Shown one piece after another: positions 25,283-52,082 of a stretch of DNA of 64,000 bases. Both the position numbers and the translations under genes were made by a program. Source of the DNA: Escherichia coli (lineage in GTDB: Bacteria > Bacillota_I > Bacilli_A > RFN20 > CAG-826); assembly GCA_963630675.1 (NCBI GenBank), contig CAVGNR010000001.1, forward strand, positions 37,807 through 101,806, in the 5' to 3' direction. Below the pieces are notes generated by a model. That model saw nothing but the letters and a program-made list of their open reading frames with translations, was not told the DNA's origin and searched no databases. Position 1 is the stretch's first letter; each line of letters starts with the position of its first letter.

Positions 25283-25876
25283 TTAGTTTAGAGTTAATGC
25301 CTTGTTTTTGTTTGCTTTATAAGCGCCAGCAAATAACAAGCATAAGGACAGAGCATAGCAAATAGTTTCGAAGAGTTTGCTAACGGAGAAACTCCCACCA
25401 TTCACAAGATCCATAATGACGACAACGGTATAAGAGACAGCCACGAAGCAGGCGTATATAACACTAGAATAAGCAAAAGTAAGGCCTAATACTTTGTTAT
25501 GAGCAAACAAAAAGGTGAAACCGCAGGCAATCATCAAGACATAGAACATTTTAGCAATGCCAGAGATAACAGAGGACGCTTCAGAACTTCCGAAATTCAT
25601 AGAATAAGCTCCAACGACAATGAGAACCAATAAAGCGGGAGCAATAGATTTAATCGTACCTTCGCAACCTTTCCCACCGAATAAGAAATAGAAATAGAAA
25701 CCAATCAAAAGAATAAGGATGAATAATTCTACGATGAATTTCATCAAAGAAACGATGTTATTGCCTAAAGAAGGCATCCCTTCACTTAAAAGATAATAGA
25801 CAACAAGAAGAATCCCAGCGATTAAAAAGAAGATATGTGCCAAAGGAGTCTTGTTCGTTTTTGTGTTACTGCTCAT
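25283..25876 (-). CDS. Polytopic membrane protein, unknown function
   Basis: ORF 25283..26044. Preferred start is ATG 25876 (MSSNTKTNKT...), preceded by GGAGGAAAATT. Five to six hydrophobic segments. Confidence 0.65.
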   Translation of the reverse strand: MSSNTKTNKTPLAHIFFLIAGILLVVYYLLSEGMPSLGNNIVSLMKFIVELFILILLIGFYFYFLFGGKGCEGTIKSIAPALLVLIVVGAYSMNFGSSEASSVISGIAKMFYVLMIACGFTFLFAHNKVLGLTFAYSSVIYACFVAVSYTVVVIMDLVNGGSFSVSKLFETICYALSLCLLFAGAYKANKNKALTLN

Positions 25877-26597
25877 AATTTTCCTCCAAAAAGCAAGGAA
25901 AATTATAGAAGAAACGAAAAGAAAAAGGAACGAGAAAACCAGACCATTTTGCACGTCTTTTATAGAATCTGGATCATCAAAAAAGGCTGCAATAGGATGT
26001 TTTGGCAAATAGCATCGCTCATTTTTTAAGCCACTTTGCTGCAATTAAACGATGTTAGGCTTCTTTACCTCGAGTTTATAAGTCTTTTCTCATCAAACGT
26101 TTAGAAAAACAAAGCAATTAGGCGATTTAAAGTGAATTATGAGAATTCTTCCTTTTGTAATGTATTTGCAAATGCATTTCATGGAAGAGTAGCAGCAAAA
26201 ACACAAATAATGTTAAAGCAAAGGAATAAAAATTAAAAAATCACGGATTGAGTTTAACGAAAAAAACATATCGCCATATACGGTAAAATAAGTTGCAGAA
26301 GCGGCGACGATTGAAAAAGTTATGGAAAGAAGAATAAAAGTTAGAGGCACGAGATAAAAATTCCATACTTATCATTGCGAAATTAATAAGCAAATAATTC
26401 GTTTTCCCTAAGTCCACGAATATGTTGTCTGGGATTACGCTTAAGGCGATAGGAAAGTGTCTATCGTTTTTATGTGAGATTCTTACCGGTGGCCCGGCTT
26501 GAACTTTAGCGCGAATCCGAATTCTCTTATTCGCCCTTTTTGCCTATCAAAAAATGACATCCTCGTTAAATATAATAGTAAAAGGGGGCATTTGAAT

Positions 26598-29492: not shown

Positions 29493-29569
29493 TGGTGACC
29501 TGTACGGGATTCGAACCCATGAATGTATCCTTGAAAGGGATATGAGTTAAGCCTCTTCTCCAACAGGCC
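29493..29569 (-). tRNA. tRNA-Glu (anticodon UUC)
   Basis: Reverse complement is GGCCTGTTGGAGAAGAGGCTTAACTCATATCCCTTTCAAGGATACATTCATGGGTTCGAATCCCGTACAGGTCACCA. Anticodon loop CTTTCAA. Confidence 0.93.
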
Positions 29570-29575
29570 ATAAAA

Positions 29576-29652
29576 TGGCGCTCACTATAGGGCTCGAACC
29601 TACAACAAATCGGTTAACAGCCGATTGCTCTGCCATTGAGCTAAGTGAGCGC
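29576..29652 (-). tRNA. tRNA-Asn (anticodon GUU)
   Basis: Reverse complement is GCGCTCACTTAGCTCAATGGCAGAGCAATCGGCTGTTAACCGATTTGTTGTAGGTTCGAGCCCTATAGTGAGCGCCA. Anticodon loop CTGTTAA. Confidence 0.93.
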
Positions 29653-29895: not shown

Positions 29896-30132
29896 TTATT
29901 TGCTTTCAAGTTTTTTATCGATAAGATCGAATAAATCACCGACAGTCTTGAATGAAGCAAGCTCTTCTGTGGTGAATTGGAAGCCGTATTTATCTTCCAA
30001 GTCTAAGCACATCTCGACAACATCAAGACTATCCAAACCAAGATCTTTCATTGGTTTGCTATCGTCGATGGAATCAAGGTGAAGTTTTTCACAGAATTGT
30101 TTTCTAATTTCGTCTAATTGGTTTGCGCTCAT
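29896..30132 (-). CDS. acpP: Acyl carrier protein
   Basis: 78 aa from ATG 30132 (AAGAGG upstream). Phosphopantetheine-site motif LGLDSLDVVEM. Confidence 0.85.
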   Translation of the reverse strand: MSANQLDEIRKQFCEKLHLDSIDDSKPMKDLGLDSLDVVEMCLDLEDKYGFQFTTEELASFKTVGDLFDLIDKKLESK

Positions 30133-30206
30133 CGTTAATGACCTCTTAACTTTCATTATTATAAGGGCTTTTTATGATGAGGCAATCAAAGAAACGATTT
30201 CATTTC

Positions 30207-30392
30207 TTAGATTTCAAACATATTAGCTGAAGAGCCTTTAACATTGCTAATCGAGTTAGAATCGGTGATAGTGATTTCTCTATCCACTTCTTTCGCACTC
30301 TTTTGGAATGTTGGGATTAAGACTGCGGCAATTGTTCCAAATGCGGCTAAAGTAAGAATCATAGCCAATAATTGTCCTTTTAATTCACTCAT
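30207..30392 (-). CDS. Pilin-like small protein (putative class III signal peptide), last gene of the Tad-like operon
   Basis: ATG 30392 is preceded by AAAGGAGGAAAAAACA. Translation is MSELKG-QLLAMILTLAAFGTIAAVLIPTF..., 61 aa. The track's TTG start at 30416 is unlikely. Confidence 0.6.
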   Translation of the reverse strand: MSELKGQLLAMILTLAAFGTIAAVLIPTFQKSAKEVDREITITDSNSISNVKGSSANMFEI

Positions 30393-30412
30393 TGTTTTTT
30401 CCTCCTTTCTTT

Positions 30413-30757
30413 TCAACCTTTATATCCGAGAACCACGGATCGATTGATACAAATTTGTTTTGTCTCGTTAGAGAAGGCGAGAGACTTATATTCTTTCCAT
30501 ATTTGGAAGAGAAAAGTGTCGCCTTCTCCTGGTATATAGCTCTCTTTATTTAGAGAGACGATATGGGCGTTATCATTCGAGACAAGTTTGATAACGTCTT
30601 CGTTTATGCTCCAATTCCTGCTAATTAATTTGCCAGCAGAAATGGCCAAACTATCTAATTGCGCATAAACCATTTGCATATGGCAGAGGTCTCCGGCATA
30701 AGCAAATATCGATAGAATGAAAGCCAAAGATAAAAGGAAACTGATATTAGATGACAT
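30413..30757 (-). CDS. TadE-like / pseudopilin-like small membrane-anchored protein
   Basis: 114 aa. N-terminal hydrophobic helix MSSNISFLLSLAFILSIFAYAG, then LDSLAISAGKLIS. The position between the TadC-like and pilin-like genes supports the call. Confidence 0.5.
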   Translation of the reverse strand: MSSNISFLLSLAFILSIFAYAGDLCHMQMVYAQLDSLAISAGKLISRNWSINEDVIKLVSNDNAHIVSLNKESYIPGEGDTFLFQIWKEYKSLAFSNETKQICINRSVVLGYKG

Positions 30758-31430
30758 TTGCGTATTCCTCCATCAAGATAACGACAGACACAGCAATGAT
30801 CCCCATCGATAAAGCCGAGGCCAACAAGGGAAGAAAATTGAAGTTTCCGAAATGGGCTTTCTCACTCTCTAGGTTTTGTTGTCGTTTGGAAACGGAGAGA
30901 GAATGAAAGAGAGTATCAAATTGGGTAAGATATTCCTCTCCTCCGCCTTCGATGGACATTTTGTAAACGGAAACCAAAACCTGGCGAATTTCGAGATTGG
31001 TGAAATTTTCTGCAAATTTCATATAAGGGCTCACACTTTTGTCATGATCGATGTCACCTAATAAAGAACGGATCTTTTCAGATAGTTCTTTGCTAGCATA
31101 CCGAAGACAATCTTCTAACGCGTTATATACAGGCCTTCCGTTTTTTACGAAGATTTCAAAATAGGCAAAAATATGCACAAATTCGTTTTCTAATTCTTTC
31201 TTTTTGTTATCCAGAATTCGTCTTGGTTTCCCTAAGAGGTAATAATCCATTCCTAAAAGAAGAACTACGATTGCTACTAAACCTACGATTTGTTTTGTTT
31301 TCCAATAAAGAAGAATACCCATAGCAAGGAGAAGCAAATCGAGAATCCCTAAAGTAATCAGCTCTATTTTTGGATTCAGTTTTGCCTCTAAATACAGTTC
31401 AATTAACTTGTTTTTTCTTTTTGAAGCCAT
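30747..31430 (-). CDS. TadC-like type II secretion system F-domain membrane protein
   Basis: 227 aa with an N-terminal TM pair. The cytoplasmic domain follows the T2SSF-like pattern (NGRPVYNALEDCLRYAS...VYKMSIEGGGEEYL). C-terminal TM present. Confidence 0.65.
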   Translation of the reverse strand: MASKRKNKLIELYLEAKLNPKIELITLGILDLLLLAMGILLYWKTKQIVGLVAIVVLLLGMDYYLLGKPRRILDNKKKELENEFVHIFAYFEIFVKNGRPVYNALEDCLRYASKELSEKIRSLLGDIDHDKSVSPYMKFAENFTNLEIRQVLVSVYKMSIEGGGEEYLTQFDTLFHSLSVSKRQQNLESEKAHFGNFNFLPLLASALSMGIIAVSVVILMEEYANVI

Positions 31431-32136
31431 GGATTTTCACCCCCTTAAATTGAATTTTTTCTTTGGTAATGCCTAAAGCAAAGAGAAAGAAAGATATATA
31501 AGCGATTAAGAAATATGCCAGAACAAGTAAGATAAAGCCGATATGGTTGATAAGTATCTGATAAAAGGACGAAAGACCGAAACGAAGAATTCCCATTACC
31601 AGTAAGCTCATTAGCCAAAGTGAGGAAAATTGAACAAGCGAGACGGTCACGTTTTTAGAATGCGAGATTCTATCTTCTTCTATCGCCGTACTTTCTTTTA
31701 GAAGAGGTGTAGCTATATCAAGAATCTCCCCTCCTTCTTCTTGATAAAGTCGAATGGTAGAGAGAAAGACACGATAGATGTCGGTTTGGAAATATTTCGA
31801 AAGATATTCCAGCCTTTCATCAAAAGATTTATCCGAAACACTATCAAGAACCTGTTTTTCTTCTCCAGAAAGGCCAAGAGTAGCGTTTTGAAAAGCAAGG
31901 TCCATAGATTTTGAAGCGCTTAAAGAAATAACGAAAGAATGGATGAAACGATATGCTTCCTGCCCTTTTCTCATCTTCATTTGGTAGCGGGAAATAAGAG
32001 GATCTATGAACAAGAAGAATAAAAGCATTCCAATGCCCAAAACCAAAAGGGCATAAAGAATTTGAGAGGTAAGCAAATAGCAGACCCCAGCAAACAATCC
32101 GCTTATAACTATATAAAAGGGAATTCTATTTTTCAT
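31399..32136 (-). CDS. TadB-like type II secretion system F-domain membrane protein
   Basis: Start ATG 32136 is preceded by AGGAG. Cytoplasmic domain SLSASKSMDLAFQNA...RLYQEEGGEILDIATPLL. C-terminal TM segments present. Confidence 0.65.
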   Translation of the reverse strand: MKNRIPFYIVISGLFAGVCYLLTSQILYALLVLGIGMLLFFLFIDPLISRYQMKMRKGQEAYRFIHSFVISLSASKSMDLAFQNATLGLSGEEKQVLDSVSDKSFDERLEYLSKYFQTDIYRVFLSTIRLYQEEGGEILDIATPLLKESTAIEEDRISHSKNVTVSLVQFSSLWLMSLLVMGILRFGLSSFYQILINHIGFILLVLAYFLIAYISFFLFALGITKEKIQFKGVKIHGFKKKKQVN

Positions 32137-33094
32137 ACGCACTCCTTTCGTAAAGAGAGACGAGTTTCTTTTCTTTTTCATCCAAGTAAGAAATTGATTT
32201 TAAATAACGATGAATGTTTCCTTCTTTGGATGTTTCTTTGACAAGATAAACGTAATAATGGAGATGATGCGCGATATCATCCATTAATTCGTCTTCTCTT
32301 AAGTTTGGGTTGCCCATCATAGCCAAACGGGCAAGACGATCGGGCATGCCTTCGACATCTTTAGCGTGGATCGTCGTTAAAATAGGGTGACCTGACATAG
32401 CACTCGTTAAGGCATCAAGCATTTCTTCTCCCCTTGCTTCTGAAACAACGATATAGTCTGGATTGTTTCTTAAGGCGTTACGAATTAGGGAAGAAAACGA
32501 AGCAATCTTAGGCGATTGTTCATTTACTAACCACGTTGTTAAATCTAGTTCAGGGATTTCTAGCATGTCTAATTCTTCGATGTTATCAATCACAATTACA
32601 CGAGTTCCTTTTTTCATGTGATAGAGACAGTATTTCTCAAATTCTGTTTTTCCAGAACTCGTTACTCCTCCAATAATGATGGATTCCTCTCTATCGAGGA
32701 GGTCTTGAATAAGAGTCCTGCTTTTTTCATCCAAAAAGGGTGAATTCTCATCAATTTGACAACCTTTCCTTTCGATACGAAGAGAGAAAGTATAGGCTTT
32801 TTCATTGGCTACCCTCGCTAAAGAATTATTCACGGCATTTAGACGGTAAGTCCCAAAGCTGACATCGAGAATAGGGTTTAAATAGGAGAATTGTCTTTCT
32901 GTCGTGTTGGCAATTTGTCGAAGAAAAGAACCCACTTCCTCGTTTGTTAAAGAGATATCGCTTTCTTCTCTGCCTTTAGAATTCGTAACGAAATACAGCT
33001 TTGAACCGTTATATGAAACGTCCGTGAGCCCTTCTTTTTCTAAAATGGGTTTAAGAAAGGAGTTTTCAAGGTATGTCACAGGATTCGTCGCCAT
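32126..33094 (-). CDS. TadA/CpaF/VirB11-family secretion ATPase
   Basis: 322 aa. Walker A GGVTSSGKTE, Asp-box-like VIVIDNIEEL, Walker B region DYIVVSEARGEE, His box GHPILTTIHA. Confidence 0.8.
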   Translation of the reverse strand: MATNPVTYLENSFLKPILEKEGLTDVSYNGSKLYFVTNSKGREESDISLTNEEVGSFLRQIANTTERQFSYLNPILDVSFGTYRLNAVNNSLARVANEKAYTFSLRIERKGCQIDENSPFLDEKSRTLIQDLLDREESIIIGGVTSSGKTEFEKYCLYHMKKGTRVIVIDNIEELDMLEIPELDLTTWLVNEQSPKIASFSSLIRNALRNNPDYIVVSEARGEEMLDALTSAMSGHPILTTIHAKDVEGMPDRLARLAMMGNPNLREDELMDDIAHHLHYYVYLVKETSKEGNIHRYLKSISYLDEKEKKLVSLYERSAYEK

Positions 33095-33095
33095 T

Positions 33096-33494
33096 TTATT
33101 TCTTCTCCTTTATGATGAAGCTTTTGCTATTTTCGTAATGATAGATGCCTTGAAAGGTAGCCTCAAAATAGAGAGTAGCTCTCTTAAAATAGGTCGTTTC
33201 TTTACCATCTATGATGTAGGGATCAGACAGTTCTTGAATTAAGGTATAGCTTCCATTCCGTAAATAAGGATCTAGATTGGTTTTAAAATAGTTTACCGTC
33301 ACTCTTTTCCAGGCCGTTTTATAGAAAAAGGGGCCGTAAGGTTTTTCGTTCTCCCCTCTCGCTAAAACCGCTTGTTGGGCAAGGGAGAAATCAAATCCTT
33401 CAAAGACACGTTTAATCTTCCCTAATGAGGAGGAATAAGAAAACATCTGGACACTAAAGCTAAAAACCAAGGCGATAAGAAGATAATTCATCAT
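33096..33494 (-). CDS. N-terminally anchored small protein of the Tad-like operon, unknown (possible minor pilin/TadF-like)
   Basis: 132 aa. MMNYLLIALVFSFSVQMF hydrophobic N-terminus. There is a 1-nt gap to the ATPase start. Confidence 0.6.
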   Translation of the reverse strand: MMNYLLIALVFSFSVQMFSYSSSLGKIKRVFEGFDFSLAQQAVLARGENEKPYGPFFYKTAWKRVTVNYFKTNLDPYLRNGSYTLIQELSDPYIIDGKETTYFKRATLYFEATFQGIYHYENSKSFIIKEKK

Positions 33495-33616
33495 AATTCT
33501 TCCTCCACGTAATAACTAGAATTCTTGTGCGAACCAAAATAATTCTTTGATTTGGTATAAGAGAATTTCCCTGTAATATCCACTAAGCCTAGCGCTCCAA
33601 CATTTAACAATTCCAT
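33491..33616 (-). CDS. 41-aa ORF, or readthrough extension of the upstream gene
   Basis: MELLNVGALGLVDITGKFSYTKSKNYFGSHKNSSYYVEEEL. Its TGA overlaps the ATG of the next gene (TTATGATG). It is in frame with the 345-aa ORF across TAG 33680-33682. Confidence 0.4.
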   Translation of the reverse strand: MELLNVGALGLVDITGKFSYTKSKNYFGSHKNSSYYVEEEL

Positions 33617-33679
33617 TTGAAAAAGGAATTTATATTCGCTTTTATCGGGAATAGAAGGTATAGGAAAACCACTTCTAAC

Positions 33680-34717
33680 CTATTGATATCCTCTGCCGCC
33701 ATCCGGAACGGTATCCCGGTTATAGACTCTTCTTCCGTCTAACGATACCCAATAGATATCCTTAATATCTAACGTTACATATTCGCCATCGAAACGTTGG
33801 CGCAAAGGAATCTTGTAGCCTTTCTTACCTTCATATCCAATAGAAGTCTCACCTAGGTTATATCGTTCATATCCATCGTAGATAAAGAGATTCATATCTG
33901 CATCATTAATAAGAAGATTTCTTCTTTCCGACGTACCAAACTGACGAAGTTCCATTTTTAAAGGAATTGGGAAGGTGAAAGCGTTGATTTCTCCACGGCT
34001 TTCTTTTTGAAAATCCCTCCAATCTAGGAATTTTCCATCGGCAATAGCATCCATTTTCACTTGCCAATTTTTCCCGCCAAATGTCACTTTGCGGTGAGCT
34101 TCTTCTTGGTTATAGTCATAATTCATCAAACGATAGGAGGATGTTGCGTATTTAGATACATCCAGGTGATATCGTTTTCCTGTGTTATAGGTACTAGGCA
34201 AATGAACATAGGCAAACTCTCCTTTATTACTACCCGAATGTTCATCAACATAGACGCCCAAAGCAAAACTCGCCTGGAAAATCTTGTAACGATAATCCGT
34301 TTTTAATCCATGGTTCTCTAAAGCGGACTTTAGAGGAATAACGCATTGTAAATAGGAACCGATTTTCCCAGATACATAAGCAGAACGATACACCTCATAA
34401 TAAGAACAACCGGAATCACTTGCTAAATGGTGCCAATTGGCTGTTGGGCCATATAAATAGTAAAGACGGATTTGAATTTTCTTAGTTGTAGAACGAACAA
34501 AACGGGTAGTAAGAGACCAACTATTCTCTTTTCCTTTGGTCATAGTTGGCATTTCTCCTTCAAGGAAATAGCCGAATTTTTCAGTAATATTTGCCACGTT
34601 GCTATCACTAATAAAAGTAAATTTCGTATCTAAATTAGAATGCACCTCTTCATCCTGAACCGCTCCAGTTAAAAAAGGAAGCAAGGGCAAAATAAAGCAT
34701 AGTTTTTTCGTTTTCAT
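33680..34717 (-). CDS. Secreted protein of unknown function, first gene of the Tad-like operon
   Basis: 345 aa. N-terminal signal peptide MKTKKLCFILPLLPFLTGAV. I recognise no family. Confidence 0.7.
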   Translation of the reverse strand: MKTKKLCFILPLLPFLTGAVQDEEVHSNLDTKFTFISDSNVANITEKFGYFLEGEMPTMTKGKENSWSLTTRFVRSTTKKIQIRLYYLYGPTANWHHLASDSGCSYYEVYRSAYVSGKIGSYLQCVIPLKSALENHGLKTDYRYKIFQASFALGVYVDEHSGSNKGEFAYVHLPSTYNTGKRYHLDVSKYATSSYRLMNYDYNQEEAHRKVTFGGKNWQVKMDAIADGKFLDWRDFQKESRGEINAFTFPIPLKMELRQFGTSERRNLLINDADMNLFIYDGYERYNLGETSIGYEGKKGYKIPLRQRFDGEYVTLDIKDIYWVSLDGRRVYNRDTVPDGGRGYQ

Positions 34718-34835
34718 TTTTCTTTTCTTCCTTTCATCACCTTAAAGAAGACGGGGTATTTAGAAAAATGCCAAAAATTTTTTAAAAAGCGAAACATTCG
34801 TAAAAAAGAAAGATAACAACTATAATAAAGAACGT

Positions 34836-35402
34836 ATGATTTTGTTGATTGGACCATCCGCTAGCGGAAAAACAGAAATTTCGAAATTATTGGGATTACG
34901 TTATGGAATCTCCAAGGCCATTACTCACACCACAAGGGCCCCTCGAAAAGGTGAAGTATATGGTGTGGATTATTATTTCGTTCAAGAAGAAGATTTCCTT
35001 CAATTGATGAAAAGAGGAGCTTTTGTAGAGAATACCGTCTATAACGGAAACCATTACGGTTGCTCAAAAGCGGAAATTGCCGACGATAAGGTTGTTGTCG
35101 TTGATCCAAATGGTTTGAAATCTTTTTTGGCTTTAAAAGATCCTTCGATTGTCTCTTTCTTTTTAAACGCGTCAGAAGAAACAAGAAGAAAGAGAATGGA
35201 AGCCAGAAAAGATAAACCTGAAGAGATTGAAAAGAGACTTCTAAATGACAAAGAAGCATTCTCTGCCGATAAAATTCAAGGGATTGATTATTTCATCAAC
35301 ACCGATAAGAGGACAATGGAAAGCCTCGTTAAAGAAATTCATGAGGATTATCTTCTTAAATTAAAAGAAAGGGGAATCCAAAATCCAAATATCATCCACT
35401 AA
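34836..35402 (+). CDS. gmk: Guanylate kinase
   Basis: 188 aa. P-loop GPSASGKTE, TTRAPRKGEVYGVDYYFV and the YNGNHYG pattern. Confidence 0.8.
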   Translation: MILLIGPSASGKTEISKLLGLRYGISKAITHTTRAPRKGEVYGVDYYFVQEEDFLQLMKRGAFVENTVYNGNHYGCSKAEIADDKVVVVDPNGLKSFLALKDPSIVSFFLNASEETRRKRMEARKDKPEEIEKRLLNDKEAFSADKIQGIDYFINTDKRTMESLVKEIHEDYLLKLKERGIQNPNIIH

Positions 35403-37832: not shown

Positions 37833-39977
37833 TTATTCCTCTTCTTCCGTGCCGGCAACGCGATAAGAAGAAAGTTGAGCAACATAATCGAATGTGGTGA
37901 TTTCAGCTTGTTTCAATCCATCTTTTTCACAAACGTCCTTAATCAAGGATTTAGCACGTCTAAGGGAGAGAGGGCTCTTCACTTTGAAAACAAGAGGGAT
38001 GTCTTTATAGAGGTTCTTTGTGCCAGCATCTTTCACTGGAATCGAAGAATCTTTATAAGCGCTTGGATCAAGAGCCATGTAGAGCTTTAGCCCTTTTCCA
38101 GCCACAACAATCTTTAAGTAGGTCTTTGTGTGGAGACGGAAAGTATCGCCAGAAATAGAAAGTCTGCTCTTTAAACCATAGGAGAGCGCTTCTTCTTTAA
38201 GAAGGTTATAGTATTCTTTGATATCGTCATCTAAAGAAAGAAGACGAGTGGCAAAAGGAATACGACGCTCTTCCTCTTCTTCCGAAGTAGATTCAGGAGT
38301 TGCAACAACAACCGGTTCCTCTTTTTTCTCCATAGGAAGAGGTTCTTCTTTAGGAGTTTCCACTACAGGTTCCTTTGCTTTTTCTAAGTTGGCTAATTTC
38401 TTATCCAATTCTTCGGAAATGATGGAACGAATATCATCAGCACTTAATTGACTTGCTCTTAAGCGTTCGATGGCAGTTTCATTTTTGGCGGCAACCAGTT
38501 TTGCTTCATATTCAGCTTGAAGGGCTTGTTGACGTGAAGAAGCAATGGCCTCGTTTTGTTTTTGGCTTTCTTCTTTAGCGGCGGAGAGTTCCTCTTTTGT
38601 GGAGGCAAGTTCTTCTTTTACGATGGTTTCGACATCTTCTTTTTTAAGAGTCTCAACTTGTGGCTGATAAGAAGAAAGAGCTTCATGGATGGCATCTTTT
38701 ACCATATCAAGTGTCAAAGCTTCGGCTTTTGGTTGTTCATCGACTACCTGTATGACTTCGTTACGAATCATTTTGCTTAATTCTTCCGCGGTCATGAAAT
38801 CTTCTTCCATCTCTTCTTTTGGAGAGGAAACAGATACAGGGGTCGCTTCTTTTTGCTCTTCTTTGACTTCTTCTTTCTTTTCAGAAGTAGGTCTTGTTGC
38901 AGCGTAATATTGACTTAATTCCTCACGAATTAAAGAACGGCATTGTTCATCCGTAAGAGGAAGAAGCTCTTCTGGATGATCATGATCTCTTAATTCGTTT
39001 TTGATAATGGAACGAAGTTCTTTTGCCGTAAGAGGACGTTCCTCTACAGGTTTTTCTTCTTTAGGGGTTGGGGCTGGTGCTTCTTGCACAGGTTCTTTTT
39101 CTTTCTTTTCGTTCAATATTTCGAGAAGAATCTTCTTTAAGCCTTCTTCGGTAAGAGGAGTGTCTTTCTTTTCTTCTTTAACAGGGGCTGGAGCTGGAGC
39201 AGGTGTTTGAAGAGAATTTCCAGCATTTGGTGCAGGAGCGTAGGTGATATTTTGAACAATAAGCGGAGAAGATTGTTGTTCTTTTTCGTCTTTTTTGTTT
39301 TCGGTGTCTTGCTCAGTTATTTGAGGATTCTTTTCGTCTTCCTTTTTGTCGGATTCTTTTTCTTCCACTGGTAAGAGGGAGACATTTTCTTCTACTTCAT
39401 GTGGGTTGATACGATCATCATGAATGGCGCCGATAACAGAGATTAAGCCAAGAACAAGGGAGGCAACCGCTAAAGCTAAAATTCCAACAAGAATACATAT
39501 GGCTGCAGCATGTTTGGCGAATCCATCTTTAAACAAGACAGAAATTAAGGAAATACCATCATGGTAGGCGTTTCCTGCTAACTGCCCTTCAAAAACATAG
39601 CCAACTCCGACTTTGGTGTAGCCAATAAAGCAAAGGACAACAAACGTTGAAGCAGCACCAAAAATCAACCAGAAAAGGTTGATGGATAAGCTATTCGCTC
39701 TACGGGTGGCGCAAAGCATAATGAAATGCCAAAGCCAGAAAATAAGAACAATTGCGACGAGTGCAACAAGGATGCCAGAAAATACGGCATTGCCGATTCC
39801 AAAGCCAATGGTGCCCTTAAAAGCAGCAAAAAGATTCACTTTTATGCCGTTTAAATAATTAGATCCGAGTAAGGTTGCTAATTCTGGGCTTAACTTAGGA
39901 AGGAAAAACAATAATGCCACAGCTGCTGCACTTAGAACAGCCGAAATAATCGACATTACTAGTGGTGATTTCTTCAT
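37833..39977 (-). CDS. Membrane protein: N-terminal polytopic domain, long Glu/Lys/Pro-rich repeat region, conserved C-terminal globular domain
   Basis: 714 aa. About 5 TM segments in aa 1-185, then seven LTxEELRxIIxEEL-like motifs in aa 275-526. The C-terminus is RIPFATRLLSLDDDIKEYYNLLKEEALSYG... Confidence 0.75.
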   Translation of the reverse strand: MKKSPLVMSIISAVLSAAAVALLFFLPKLSPELATLLGSNYLNGIKVNLFAAFKGTIGFGIGNAVFSGILVALVAIVLIFWLWHFIMLCATRRANSLSINLFWLIFGAASTFVVLCFIGYTKVGVGYVFEGQLAGNAYHDGISLISVLFKDGFAKHAAAICILVGILALAVASLVLGLISVIGAIHDDRINPHEVEENVSLLPVEEKESDKKEDEKNPQITEQDTENKKDEKEQQSSPLIVQNITYAPAPNAGNSLQTPAPAPAPVKEEKKDTPLTEEGLKKILLEILNEKKEKEPVQEAPAPTPKEEKPVEERPLTAKELRSIIKNELRDHDHPEELLPLTDEQCRSLIREELSQYYAATRPTSEKKEEVKEEQKEATPVSVSSPKEEMEEDFMTAEELSKMIRNEVIQVVDEQPKAEALTLDMVKDAIHEALSSYQPQVETLKKEDVETIVKEELASTKEELSAAKEESQKQNEAIASSRQQALQAEYEAKLVAAKNETAIERLRASQLSADDIRSIISEELDKKLANLEKAKEPVVETPKEEPLPMEKKEEPVVVATPESTSEEEEERRIPFATRLLSLDDDIKEYYNLLKEEALSYGLKSRLSISGDTFRLHTKTYLKIVVAGKGLKLYMALDPSAYKDSSIPVKDAGTKNLYKDIPLVFKVKSPLSLRRAKSLIKDVCEKDGLKQAEITTFDYVAQLSSYRVAGTEEEE

Positions 39978-49735: not shown

Positions 49736-49937
49736 AATTCAGTTTCCTTAATGTTCCTGCTGGCAATCATAAATATTTAGTAGACAAATAGCAAAGAGAA
49801 TCTTTATGTCTACACCCGTCCTAAAAATATCTTAATCAGGTAACTTTATTTATTAAGAATTTTCTTAATCTAATTTAATGCACCTTACTTGCAACTATAT
49901 AAAACTAATATATAAAATGTCTTGCCTTACTATCAAG

Positions 49938-52082
49938 ATGAAAACAATTAGATTAATTACATTAATAACAAGCATAGCAGCCTTACAAGGAATGTCTATT
50001 GGCCATACAAATTCCAATAAGCTACTCCTAAAAGCGAGTTCATCTTCTTTTTATTCTGATATAAATGAAATCATCCAATTAGATAACTTCGATCCCAGAG
50101 CCGAATTGACTCCAGTTCAAGATCAAGGGAGCACAAACCTATGTTGGGCATATTCTTCAATTAACGCTAGCGAGGCTTCCATATTAAAAAATAGACTGAC
50201 AAATAAAGATACATTAAGACTCAATCCACAAGCCCTTGCATATAGAAAGTTTTATAGGAATATGGATCCATTAGGTAATAACCAATCCTATAGTAAGACA
50301 GCTGATTGGCTTAATGCCCAAGGCTCAATTAGCAATACCCCTTCTGTTTTAAGTATGTGGCAAGGTCCAATAGGAGGAGATAAACCTGCAGCAGATGTCT
50401 ATACTAATTCACTTTATAGATTAGAAGAAGCAAGTCAAATTTCATCTGGATTACATAATGAAGATAGGATTAATGAAATAAAACAAGCAATTGCTAAATA
50501 TGGGGCTGTCACCGCTTCTACTAGCTATGATGGGGGAAGAAATTATTATTATAACGATAAGGATATAAAAAACGGGGTGGCCCATGCGATTACTTTAATT
50601 GGATGGGATGATAACATCAATAAAGACTTATTCGCCCCAAAGAGCGCGACTAGAAACGGGGGATGGCTAGTAAAGAATAGCTATTTAGATAACCCCTATT
50701 TCTATTTAACTTACGATAGCAAGATTCTAGATTCCACATCATGGGTGTTTAGCTATGCCTCTAAAGATAAATATGACTATAACTATTATTATGATAACAA
50801 CGGAGACGATGCAGGACTATTTAAATTAAAGGGATTCGCGAATATCTATCAAGCTAAAAAAGGCAATGATGAATATAAAGAATATCTAAAAGCAGTTAAC
50901 GTTGCCTTTATTGGAAATGGCGTAGATGTAACTATTAAAATCTATACCGATGTATCTAGCATGGGTCAAGTTGCAGTTGAAAGAGGAACATTAAAAGCCA
51001 CAAAAACCGAACATTATAAGTATCAAGGGTATAAGACAATTGAATTAGATAATCCAATTTTATTAAACCCAGGTAGCTATTTTTCCATTGTAGTCGAAGT
51101 AACTAATGCGTCTGATGATGCCCATATCAGCCTAACTACTGTTGATCAAAAGAAAGCATCATTTAACAAAGTTGGTTCCGATTACGAAGAACTATTTAAC
51201 GGGAGTTATGTTGCTAGAATCAAGGCTTATACAAAATGTATCAAGGAAGAAATAAATGAACATGTTCATGACTGGAACGAGCCAATTTATGAATGGAACG
51301 AAGACTATTCTTCTTTAAAAGCCTCTAGGACATGTAAAGAAGATTCTAGTCACATAGAAACCGAAACCGTTGGTACCGTTATATCAATTGCTAACCAACC
51401 AACTTGCCTTACAAAGGGCAATAAACATATAGAAAGCAAGCCTTTTACTAATCCCGCTTTTAAAGTTCAAACATTAGATATTGATTTAGGATATGGACCC
51501 CATACATATTCTTCTTGGATTAATGAAATTGCTCCTACTACTGAAACTGAAGGTATTAAAGGTCATAAAGATTGTTTAATTTGCCATAAACATTTTGATA
51601 AGGAAGATAACGAGATATTAGATTTATCCATTCCTAAACTAGAAAAGAAAGTAAATGTAATTATTTCAAATGGCTCAGGAAGCAAGGAAAACATCCCGGT
51701 TGGTTCTTCTATTACGATTAAGGCAGATAAACCTAAAGAAGGTATGAAGTTTGTAGGCTGGGCGGATAAGGATGGGAACATAGTAAGCACAGACGAAACA
51801 TATACATTCGTTGTAACTGAAGACACTTATCTAATTGCCATTTATGAAGAAATAGAAGGCCAAGAATCAAGCAGTTCTAGTTCATCTAGCGAACCCCTTA
51901 CATCAAATTCAAGTCAATTATCTTCTTCTAGCAAGGAAAATAATTCTTCCAATGATCAAGATAAAATAGATGCTCCATATAACAAAATAGATGTAATCAT
52001 CGTTACATCCATAATTGCAGGAACCCTTTCTATTTCTTTAATAATTACCTGTATATATTTATTCCTAAAAAAGAAAAAATAA
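49938..52082 (+). CDS. Secreted, C-terminally membrane-anchored papain-family (C1) cysteine peptidase with accessory domains
   Basis: Signal peptide MKTIRLITLITSIAALQG. Catalytic Cys context QGSTNLCWAYSS, His context HAITLIGWDD, then NGGWLVKNSY. Followed by a Cys/His-rich module, an InlB-B-repeat-like domain, a Ser-rich linker and a C-terminal TM. Confidence 0.85.
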   Translation: MKTIRLITLITSIAALQGMSIGHTNSNKLLLKASSSSFYSDINEIIQLDNFDPRAELTPVQDQGSTNLCWAYSSINASEASILKNRLTNKDTLRLNPQALAYRKFYRNMDPLGNNQSYSKTADWLNAQGSISNTPSVLSMWQGPIGGDKPAADVYTNSLYRLEEASQISSGLHNEDRINEIKQAIAKYGAVTASTSYDGGRNYYYNDKDIKNGVAHAITLIGWDDNINKDLFAPKSATRNGGWLVKNSYLDNPYFYLTYDSKILDSTSWVFSYASKDKYDYNYYYDNNGDDAGLFKLKGFANIYQAKKGNDEYKEYLKAVNVAFIGNGVDVTIKIYTDVSSMGQVAVERGTLKATKTEHYKYQGYKTIELDNPILLNPGSYFSIVVEVTNASDDAHISLTTVDQKKASFNKVGSDYEELFNGSYVARIKAYTKCIKEEINEHVHDWNEPIYEWNEDYSSLKASRTCKEDSSHIETETVGTVISIANQPTCLTKGNKHIESKPFTNPAFKVQTLDIDLGYGPHTYSSWINEIAPTTETEGIKGHKDCLICHKHFDKEDNEILDLSIPKLEKKVNVIISNGSGSKENIPVGSSITIKADKPKEGMKFVGWADKDGNIVSTDETYTFVVTEDTYLIAIYEEIEGQESSSSSSSSEPLTSNSSQLSSSSKENNSSNDQDKIDAPYNKIDVIIVTSIIAGTLSISLIITCIYLFLKKKK

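Follow-up and report, generated by a model that had tools for sequence, protein, structure and literature searches.

A seven-gene operon at positions 30207-34717 of contig CAVGNR010000001.1 as analyzed here (a 64-kb stretch, hereafter the window, whose coordinates are used throughout) probably encodes a minimal type IV filament (TFF) machine, chromosomal and inherited vertically, that follows the Tad/Epd plan, dispenses with TadZ and has diverged deeply from the systems on which that plan is based. An earlier note, written from the sequence alone, had described the locus as a compact Tad-like operon, some of its components unrecognized, with no peptidase, TadZ or secretin in its vicinity; the core of that description stands, whereas several of the labels given to individual components do not. 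The genes and associated features are as follows, in the order of transcription for the genes themselves.

33491-34717, minus strand: gene 1, secreted protein of 408 codons, split by a TAG into open reading frames (ORFs) at 33680-34717 (345 aa) and 33491-33616 (41 aa)
33680-33682, minus strand: premature stop TAG, codon 346 of gene 1, from codon comparison with the related loci L001 and L010
33096-33494, minus strand: gene 2, 132 aa, hydrophobic from residue 1, signal-anchor or minor-pilin-like, its position kept in 12 loci
32126-33094, minus strand: gene 3, 322-aa secretion ATPase of the VirB11/TadA/FlaI class (PF00437)
31399-32136, minus strand: gene 4, putative first platform protein, TadB-like, 245 aa (the longest ORF reaches 32181, 260 aa)
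30747-31430, minus strand: gene 5, putative second platform protein, 227 aa, in the TadC position, paralog of gene 4
30413-30757, minus strand: gene 6, 114 aa, with an N-terminal hydrophobic helix and an AGDLC motif invariant in the homolog alignment
30207-30392, minus strand: gene 7, pilin-sized, 61 aa (the longest ORF, 30207-30416, is 69 aa from a TTG)
30401-30407, minus strand: Shine-Dalgarno sequence AAGGAGG, 8 nt upstream of the gene 7 ATG, read directly from the sequence
34718-34835, no strand: 118-bp divergent intergenic region between gene 1 and gmk, presumably the operon promoter region

The interval holds eight minus-strand ORFs, of 345, 41, 132, 322, 260, 227, 114 and 69 (or 61) aa, and the operon has seven genes because the first two of these ORFs belong to a single gene that is interrupted. 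The earlier note had announced nine ORFs while listing eight, and had entered these two as separate items; they share a reading frame and correspond to a single gene of 407-436 aa in relatives. Its description of tight packing is borne out, the junctions being, in order, a 4-nt overlap, a 1-nt gap, overlaps of 11, 32 and 11 nt, and a 20-nt gap before the last gene, which is as described once the ATG at 30392 is taken as the real start of gene 7. Gene 4 likely starts at M16 (32136, giving 245 aa), a methionine that is invariant in homologs and is the start used in public gene calls. The divergent region upstream of gene 1 contains weak sigma-70-like matches only, in numbers not above the shuffled expectation.

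Gene 3 scores 72.1 bits against a cut-off of 24.9 for PF00437, and the Walker A, Walker B, Asp box and His box are all readable in its sequence, so that the original call of a secretion ATPase holds, together with the Walker A, Walker B and His-box strings quoted for it. What kind of secretion ATPase is it? The model of the TadA family (TIGR03819) gives 109.7 bits against a cut-off of 373 and that of VirB11 (TIGR02788) 109.3 bits against 249.95, with 74.7 bits for the FlaI model and 65.8 bits, against a cut-off of 300, for the ComGA model; the best matches in the PDB are VirB11-like (6bge and HP0525, ~1e-13), followed by CpaF and FlaI (~4e-10). In a neighbor-joining tree the gene 3 family and the ATPases of pLS20, pXO2 and a Listeria plasmid form one side in 200 of 200 bootstraps, the other side comprising four CpaF, three VirB11 and one TrbB sequence as well as the CpaF-like protein of pXO1. 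Gene 3 thus lies outside the sampled CpaF clade and outside the VirB11 and TrbB sequences, and the phylogeny that had been proposed for it, run here on bacterial sequences, places it among the ATPases of Gram-positive conjugative plasmids known as 'VirB11-like' and apart from the CpaF sequences sampled from proteobacteria and from the sampled VirB11. Public databases label the protein CpaF, TadA or VirB11-family and leave all other components of the operon unnamed.

The two genes that follow the ATPase are paralogs. Both proteins begin with two transmembrane (TM) helices that precede a cytoplasmic domain, helical in gene 4, and end in a TM hairpin in gene 4 and in a single TM helix in gene 5, and their families align with each other over 174 columns (hhalign of alignments A1 and A2, 92.9%, E 3.8e-7; E 9.6e-7 for A2 against A4, the 59-sequence alignment of the gene 4 family). 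Neither window protein has a match to Pfam T2SSF (PF00482) at E<=1. T2SSF is nevertheless the joint-commonest weak Pfam match within the gene 4 family, found in 7 of 59 members with a best E-value of 4e-4 and tied with DUF2207_C, and A4 aligns with proteobacterial TadB over 152 columns in the T2SSF region (hhalign, 83.1%, E 8.9e-6). Comparison of shallow alignments (11 versus 4 sequences) had been too weak, at no more than 34%, and it was the 59-sequence alignment that made it informative. An AlphaFold2 (AF2) model of gene 4, with a predicted local distance difference test score (pLDDT) of 81.4, finds the cytoplasmic domain of EpsF (2vmb_B) as its top-probability Foldseek match (probability 0.69, TM-score 0.62 by target, root-mean-square deviation 3.8 A), at a non-significant E-value of 3. 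The T2SSF/TadB-TadC pattern first suggested for the two proteins failed the Pfam profile test, an outcome that the earlier note had named as refuting its reading, and is rescued only by profile-profile comparison of gene 4 with TadB and by structure comparison. Direct matches of gene 5 to TadB, TadC and pLS20 gene 39 are weak (E 0.002-0.04), and the succession of ATPase, gene 4 and gene 5 reproduces the TadA-TadB-TadC order of four proteobacterial Tad loci (L020-L023). An exhaustive profile search with the gene 4 family returned 299 representatives at E<=0.001; among the 150 of these that were listed, all have E<=8e-28 and most are ~230-260 aa long, with no sign that the search reaches the large TadB and TadC families, and by this measure gene 4 belongs to a separate, discrete and fairly small family. 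That genes 4 and 5 are very divergent platform proteins of the TadB/TadC type is, from these comparisons, supported but not proven.

The closest annotated counterparts of the operon lie on Gram-positive conjugative plasmids. A tblastn search of the ATPase against 72,556 plasmids gave as best matches pLS20 and its relatives, pXO2, Listeria pLIS8 and a Paraclostridium plasmid, at 28-33% identity and E-values of 1e-26 to 1e-36, whereas proteobacterial CpaF/VirB11 proteins reach only ~1e-9 to 1e-12. On these plasmids, a secreted adhesin is followed by a block encoding proteins of about 126, 402, 268, 243, 120 and 47 aa: a TM protein, the 'VirB11' ATPase, a pair of membrane proteins and a further pair of small proteins with TM helices. 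By gene order, the following blocks are colinear.

5401-9289 of L018: pLS20
5349-9235 of L025: pXO2
5378-9416 of L026: Listeria pLIS8
5380-9369 of L019: further plasmid block

Apart from the ATPase, the genes of the block are annotated as hypothetical or unknown, and in the paper on the pLS20 family gene 37 figures as 'putative VirB11', whereas genes 36 and 38-41 are entered as 'Unknown' (PMC8557374); the block resembles a Tad-like platform and pilin module. The gene 4 family is linked to the gene 38 family of pLS20 by an alignment of 224 columns (hhalign with A4, 95.6%, E 1.1e-8), and gene 38 of pLS20 and of pXO2 gives weak full-domain T2SSF matches (E 0.14-0.19); the TadB-like protein of pXO1 has a weak T2SSF match at E 0.014. 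For the remaining pairs hhalign returned E-values of 0.049 (gene 2 and pLS20 gene 36), 0.002 (gene 5 and gene 39), 0.0014 (gene 6 and gene 40) and 0.11 (gene 7 and gene 41). Gene 2 shares its position with gene 36 (126 aa, with an N-terminal TM helix), and genes 36, 40 and 41 of pLS20 match the small proteins of the window in position, size and TM placement. It is possible, and we put it forward tentatively, that the operon and genes 36-41 of the pLS20, pXO2 and Listeria plasmids together form an unrecognized, TadZ-less branch of TFF machines in the Bacillota. No description of the operon, or of pLS20 genes 38-41 as platform or pilin proteins, turned up in the literature searched, whose incomplete coverage leaves room for a prior description. 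On a further plasmid, Bacillus thuringiensis p133753 (L024, 5241-5939), a 232-aa protein encoded directly upstream of a related ATPase and next to VirD4 is named 'flagellar assembly protein FlaJ' by NCBI; it has no Pfam T2SSF match, and the locus seems to be a module of this kind in another arrangement.

How is the operon itself distributed? All of its genes occur in the same order in 17 related loci, in which ATPase identity falls from 98% to 51%, and the conservation of the ORFs across these loci is far beyond chance. The operon is that of an uncultured gut bacterium of the 'Mollicutes' type; the nearest relative on record is uncultured Mollicutes bacterium UMGS237, with an ATPase 98% identical, and the other matches are metagenome-assembled genomes from the gut. 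The operon lies between gmk (34836-35402, plus strand, PF00625), which is divergent from gene 1, and acpP, beyond gene 7, and this arrangement recurs in contigs labeled Mollicutes, Bacilli and Erysipelotrichaceae whose ATPases are 51-62% identical. Because the position relative to gmk and acpP remains fixed down to 51% ATPase identity, the locus appears to belong to the chromosomal core and to be inherited vertically rather than mobile. In all relatives the gene for the acyl carrier protein (29896-30156 in the window) comes directly after the pilin gene; in the window it is preceded by a sigma-70-like promoter matching at 10 of 12 positions (TTGCCT-16-TATAAT, 30185-30158), with tRNA-Glu and tRNA-Asn genes at 29493-29650, past acpP. 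The flanks are of the housekeeping type, in the window and in relatives: beyond gmk come two CNNM/CorC genes, DAGK and CTP synthase, and with them a membrane protein of 714 aa. A ParA-like ATPase of the TadZ/CpaE type is absent from the operon and its flanks, both in the window and in the related loci whose gene tables were inspected; by contrast, an AAA ATPase adjoins CpaF in pXO1 and in the proteobacterial Tad loci.

Two peculiarities of the related loci deserve mention. An extra cytoplasmic gene of ~115 aa with a conserved GRHY.FW.L.F motif is inserted between gmk and the first operon gene in L012 (6179-6532) and L014 (6218-6565); neither the window nor its close relatives have this gene, which may encode a regulator. 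Operon contigs of five loci (L002, L005, L007, L008 and L009) are titled Prevotella, Bacteroides uniformis, Alistipes, Hallerella and Faecalibacterium, and these contigs have probably been mis-binned in the public assemblies.

Three small proteins are also part of the operon. For gene 7, the ATG at 30392 is taken as the true start, which leaves a protein of 61 aa, as the Shine-Dalgarno sequence lies upstream of this ATG and every homolog begins with a leader of the MSELKG type. Across eight divergent homologs M1, S2, E3, K5, G6, Q7, L8, L9 and M11 are invariant and the C-terminal half is variable; the leader consensus, MSE[LI]KG-QLL[AG]M, is followed by ~22 hydrophobic residues. Its length and the shape of its leader would fit a class III signal peptide. 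No PF04964 or other pilin Pfam match was found in the eight members of the family at E<=10. Of the earlier label of a pilin-like protein, the pilin size and the class-III-like leader therefore stand, while assignment as a Flp pilin does not. For gene 6, PF16964 (TadF) is the commonest weak match among homologs (4 of 11, best E 0.016, aligned from the N-terminus), and the protein is possibly a TadF-like minor pilin; no match to TadE (PF07811) was found, so its former 'TadE-like' label comes down to these recurrent sub-threshold TadF matches. Gene 2 has no Pfam or NCBIfam match.

In gene 1, an N-terminal signal peptide is followed by tandem beta-sandwich domains, and the AF2 model is mostly beta (pLDDT 80.9, predicted TM-score 0.78). 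Pfam and NCBIfam return no match. Foldseek searches of PDB and BFVD allowed no family to be assigned, the matches being generic multi-beta-sandwich proteins with TM-scores of ~0.2, among them transglutaminase barrels, C3b, arrestin/VPS26, ClfA, RbmA and phage tail proteins. The C-terminal ~60 residues are the most conserved, and even in L012, a distant locus, a C-terminal stretch of ~150 aa can be detected (hhalign E 4.4e-5), although the N-terminal parts have diverged beyond recognition in such loci, a pattern that suits a variable binding part joined to a conserved part docking to the machine. Between the window and L001 the gene shows 121 synonymous versus 29 non-synonymous codon differences, a ratio that indicates purifying selection. 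The interruption in the window is of a simple kind: the 345-aa and 41-aa ORFs are in frame, parted by the TAG and 21 codons, and the gene is a single ORF of 407-436 aa in L001-L011 and of 421 aa in L016. Codon 346 is TAG in the window, CAG in L001 and CAA in L010, within an alignable context that reads YQQVRSG in homologs. The 62 codons downstream of the TAG are intact and 93% identical to L001, and an uninterrupted 408-aa allele (P0289), 99% identical, represents 236 member sequences. The TAG is so a recent mutation, a strain polymorphism or a base-call error, in each case a single C-to-T change. Programmed read-through of the TAG was set aside, since relatives simply encode Gln there.

Taken together, these proteins suggest a machine of the following kind. 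A hexameric ATPase of the VirB11/TadA class (gene 3) would dock on a membrane platform made of two paralogous proteins with one T2SSF-like domain each (genes 4 and 5), and this motor would drive the membrane extraction and polymerization of a short pilin (gene 7, ~55 aa after removal of the six-residue MSELKG). Genes 2 and 6 would supply minor or priming pilins or assembly factors. Gene 1 would be a surface-exposed adhesin or tip partner, whose C-terminal module binds the machine or the fiber and whose variable N-terminal part binds the target; in this particular genome, the adhesin gene would be cut by the nonsense codon. The system would work without TadZ, CpaB or a secretin, and a prepilin peptidase, if one is needed, would be encoded elsewhere. 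In a reduced gut bacterium, adhesion to host or partner surfaces is most likely its role.

Several observations weigh against a filament machine and temper our confidence in it. No filament has been seen in any member of the group, and Gram-positive conjugative elements, among which the closest relatives of the operon are found, form no pili according to the pLS20 paper (PMC8557374). Scans of nine proteins with Pfam and NCBIfam models found only the ATPase and the neighboring acyl carrier protein above threshold, so that no operon component except the ATPase reaches a curated family threshold. All E-values of the gene 4 model in Foldseek searches of the PDB exceed 1, and searching PDB sequences with the profiles of the two platform families yielded noise only (CD20, Sin3, troponin C). 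Comparison of genes 2, 6 and 7 with a proteobacterial TadE/TadG set by hhalign was negative, and by profile comparison the homology of genes 2, 5, 6 and 7 to pLS20 genes 36, 39, 40 and 41 is not established. The ATPase tree is a distance tree with a small taxon sample and no archaeal sequences. Gene 7 has neither a Glu at +5 nor the Flp motif G/xxxxEY, reading QLLAM after the G. The first gene of the operon is interrupted in the window. Finally, TadZ/ParA, CpaB, a secretin, a second ATPase and a GxGD/A24 peptidase are all missing from the 64-kb window, which confirms within that range what the earlier note had said of the peptidase, TadZ/ParA, secretin and second ATPase. The only plausible candidate for a hidden prepilin peptidase, a 253-aa protein with seven TM helices (25283-26044), was rejected, having no Pfam match and no GxGD motif. 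In some Tad systems, the prepilin peptidase is encoded away from the tad locus. Such peptidases are sometimes also shared between systems (PMC6668835), so the lack of one in view is not unusual in itself.

Other explanations of the locus start from the same facts. The ATPase and its neighbors could be the energizing sub-module of a conjugative type IV secretion system (T4SS), VirB11 with channel or accessory proteins, surviving as a chromosomal remnant or an integrated element and acting in DNA or protein translocation. The nearest annotated relatives of the ATPase do sit in the conjugation operons of pLS20, pXO2, pLIS8 and the Paraclostridium plasmid, next to VirD4- and VirB2-like genes, its top PDB matches are VirB11-like, and TIGR02788 scores as high as the TadA-family model. 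That VirB11 score, however, is 109 bits against a cut-off of 250, and the tree separates the clade from VirB11 and TrbB. To our knowledge, canonical VirB11 is not accompanied by paired T2SSF-like proteins, and we count this against a T4SS origin. Moreover, no VirB4, VirD4, VirB6/VirB8, relaxase or integrase was found within ~8-10 kb in the inspected flanks of relatives or in the tested regions of the 64-kb window, and the fixed gmk and acpP position at 51% ATPase identity again speaks for vertical inheritance. The earlier note had named a conjugative VirB11 within a larger T4SS as the finding that would undo its reading; the locus is not part of a T4SS, and we consider a conjugative origin of this kind quite unlikely. 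A TFF-type machine need not build a long pilus either, and might instead act as a type II secretion system (T2SS) or an archaeal bindosome does, exporting or displaying the gene 1 protein by means of a short pseudopilus or piston. The operon always begins with the gene for the secreted protein, whose C-terminal module is conserved, and the machine has very few parts, an extremely short pilin and no retraction or localization factors. Yet gene 1 carries an ordinary N-terminal signal peptide, with which it would cross the membrane by Sec without help, a bacterium with a single membrane offers a T2SS-like piston no outer membrane to cross, and the rest of the operon is intact and conserved in the window despite the truncation of gene 1; on balance we judge a piston unlikely.

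A different function for the same machine would be DNA uptake, with the filament replacing or supplementing the Com pilus in a reduced genome that is auxotrophic for nucleotides. Flp/Tad-dependent transformation has reportedly been observed in Micrococcus luteus, Tad-dependent DNA uptake is said to occur in Liberibacter, and the operon is retained in reduced genomes. Against a competence role, neither the operon nor the inspected flanks contain ComEA, ComEC or DprA, and no component showed a feature specific to DNA binding; as this proposal departs from our preferred reading in function only, and the machine itself would be the same, we regard it as rather improbable as a statement about what the filament does. 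The premature TAG in gene 1 could also mean that the locus is decaying and non-functional in this organism. It is, however, a single change, followed by 62 conserved codons, the six remaining genes all have their full length and keep their conserved motifs, the uninterrupted allele prevails in public data (236 members), and a base-call or assembly error is possible; we hold decay to be highly improbable.

If the operon is indeed a divergent TFF machine of the Tad/Epd type, it offers a testable identity for six conserved 'hypothetical' proteins of abundant, uncultured bacteria of the human and animal gut. Presumably these reduced bacteria rely on contact with a host or with partner cells. Should the tentative union with the plasmid modules also be correct, the plasmid 'VirB11' would be the motor of a Tad-like pilus for mating-pair formation, contradicting the view of Gram-positive conjugation as pilus-free, and a reduced, uncultured lineage of gut Bacilli would keep a chromosomal copy as a core adhesion organelle. 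Genes 36 and 38-41 of pLS20 and the unknown block of pXO2/pAW63 may then be re-read as a Tad-like filament module, a proposal that can be tested in the genetically tractable Bacillus subtilis and that bears on how Gram-positive donors find recipients. More generally, T2SSF platform proteins and pilins can drift below the thresholds of curated hidden Markov models, and profile-based surveys of TFFs miss such systems.

Elsewhere in the window, three other regions stand out. The segment 11146-22395 encodes a 944-aa protein with PLD-nuclease, ResIII helicase and DUF3427 domains, a 604-aa AAA_14/STAND-like ATPase and a 488-aa protein with Schlafen AlbA_2 and HATPase_c_4 domains, and interspersed with these genes is one for a surface protein of 1004 aa that carries four InlB B-repeat domains; the segment looks like a defense or accessory island. 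The 714-aa protein beyond gmk (37833-39977) has four N-terminal TM helices, a long low-complexity region rich in Lys, Glu and Pro, and no Pfam match; it is syntenic next to the CNNM genes in relatives, where it measures 761-785 aa. The third region, 49878-52082, encodes a secreted protein of 734 aa in which a papain-like C1 peptidase is joined to a lectin-like domain and a Listeria-Bacteroides repeat, with a TM anchor at the C-terminus; it is a candidate surface protease or adhesin.

Where does the operon belong among known systems? Tad has been described in Bulleidia extructa as a horizontally acquired operon of 13 genes (PMC12786226), which is a different, canonical system with tadV and TadG. 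Two platform genes with a single T2SSF domain each and a short major pilin are the hallmark of Tad/Epd (Denise et al. 2019, PMC6668835). The Tad/Flp systems of Caulobacter crescentus (Cpa) and Aggregatibacter actinomycetemcomitans (Tad) resemble the operon, as read here, in having one ATPase of the bifunctional class followed by two paralogous proteins with single T2SSF-type domains, a very short major pilin, small N-terminally hydrophobic proteins and a peptidase that is not necessarily in the locus. Unlike them, the operon has no TadZ/CpaE, CpaB/RcpC, secretin or TadD, and its 322-aa ATPase lacks the N-terminal extension of CpaF. The operon fits the Tad/Epd plan and the Tad gene order of ATPase, TadB and TadC, but it lacks three Tad-defining features that were tested, namely a TadZ, an Flp motif and an ATPase that falls within the CpaF clade, and the VirB11 and T4SS tests came out negative as well. 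The archaellum motor (FlaI/ArlI and FlaJ/ArlJ) differs from the operon, which has no FlaH/KaiC-like second ATPase and a bacterial host; this comparison involved no archaeal sequences. A Gln at +1 after a K/R-G leader, without Glu at +5, is common among archaeal class III signals and is seen in gene 7 as well. Archaeal Epd-like pili have two single-domain platform genes and short pilins (PMC6668835), as the operon would. The Com (ComG) pilus is likewise a minimal TFF machine of a single-membrane bacterium with an off-locus peptidase and a short leader ending in G; it differs in that ComGB is a single protein with two T2SSF domains and in that pilins of the ComGC type have Phe+1, Glu+5 and an N_methyl motif. 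The pLS20-type modules share with the operon the gene order, the protein sizes, a joint ATPase clade, an upstream secreted adhesin and, in gene 38, a homolog of gene 4. They sit in T4SS operons with VirD4, VirB4 and VirB6, whereas the operon described here is chromosomal and lies between gmk and acpP; their ATPases are of 370-440 aa as against 322 aa, their 47-aa protein has no KG leader, and their upstream adhesin is a thioester-domain Tie protein unrelated to gene 1. We therefore file the operon as a divergent, TadZ-less TFF module that is akin to Tad in its architecture and whose closest kin by descent are the modules of pLS20-type plasmids.

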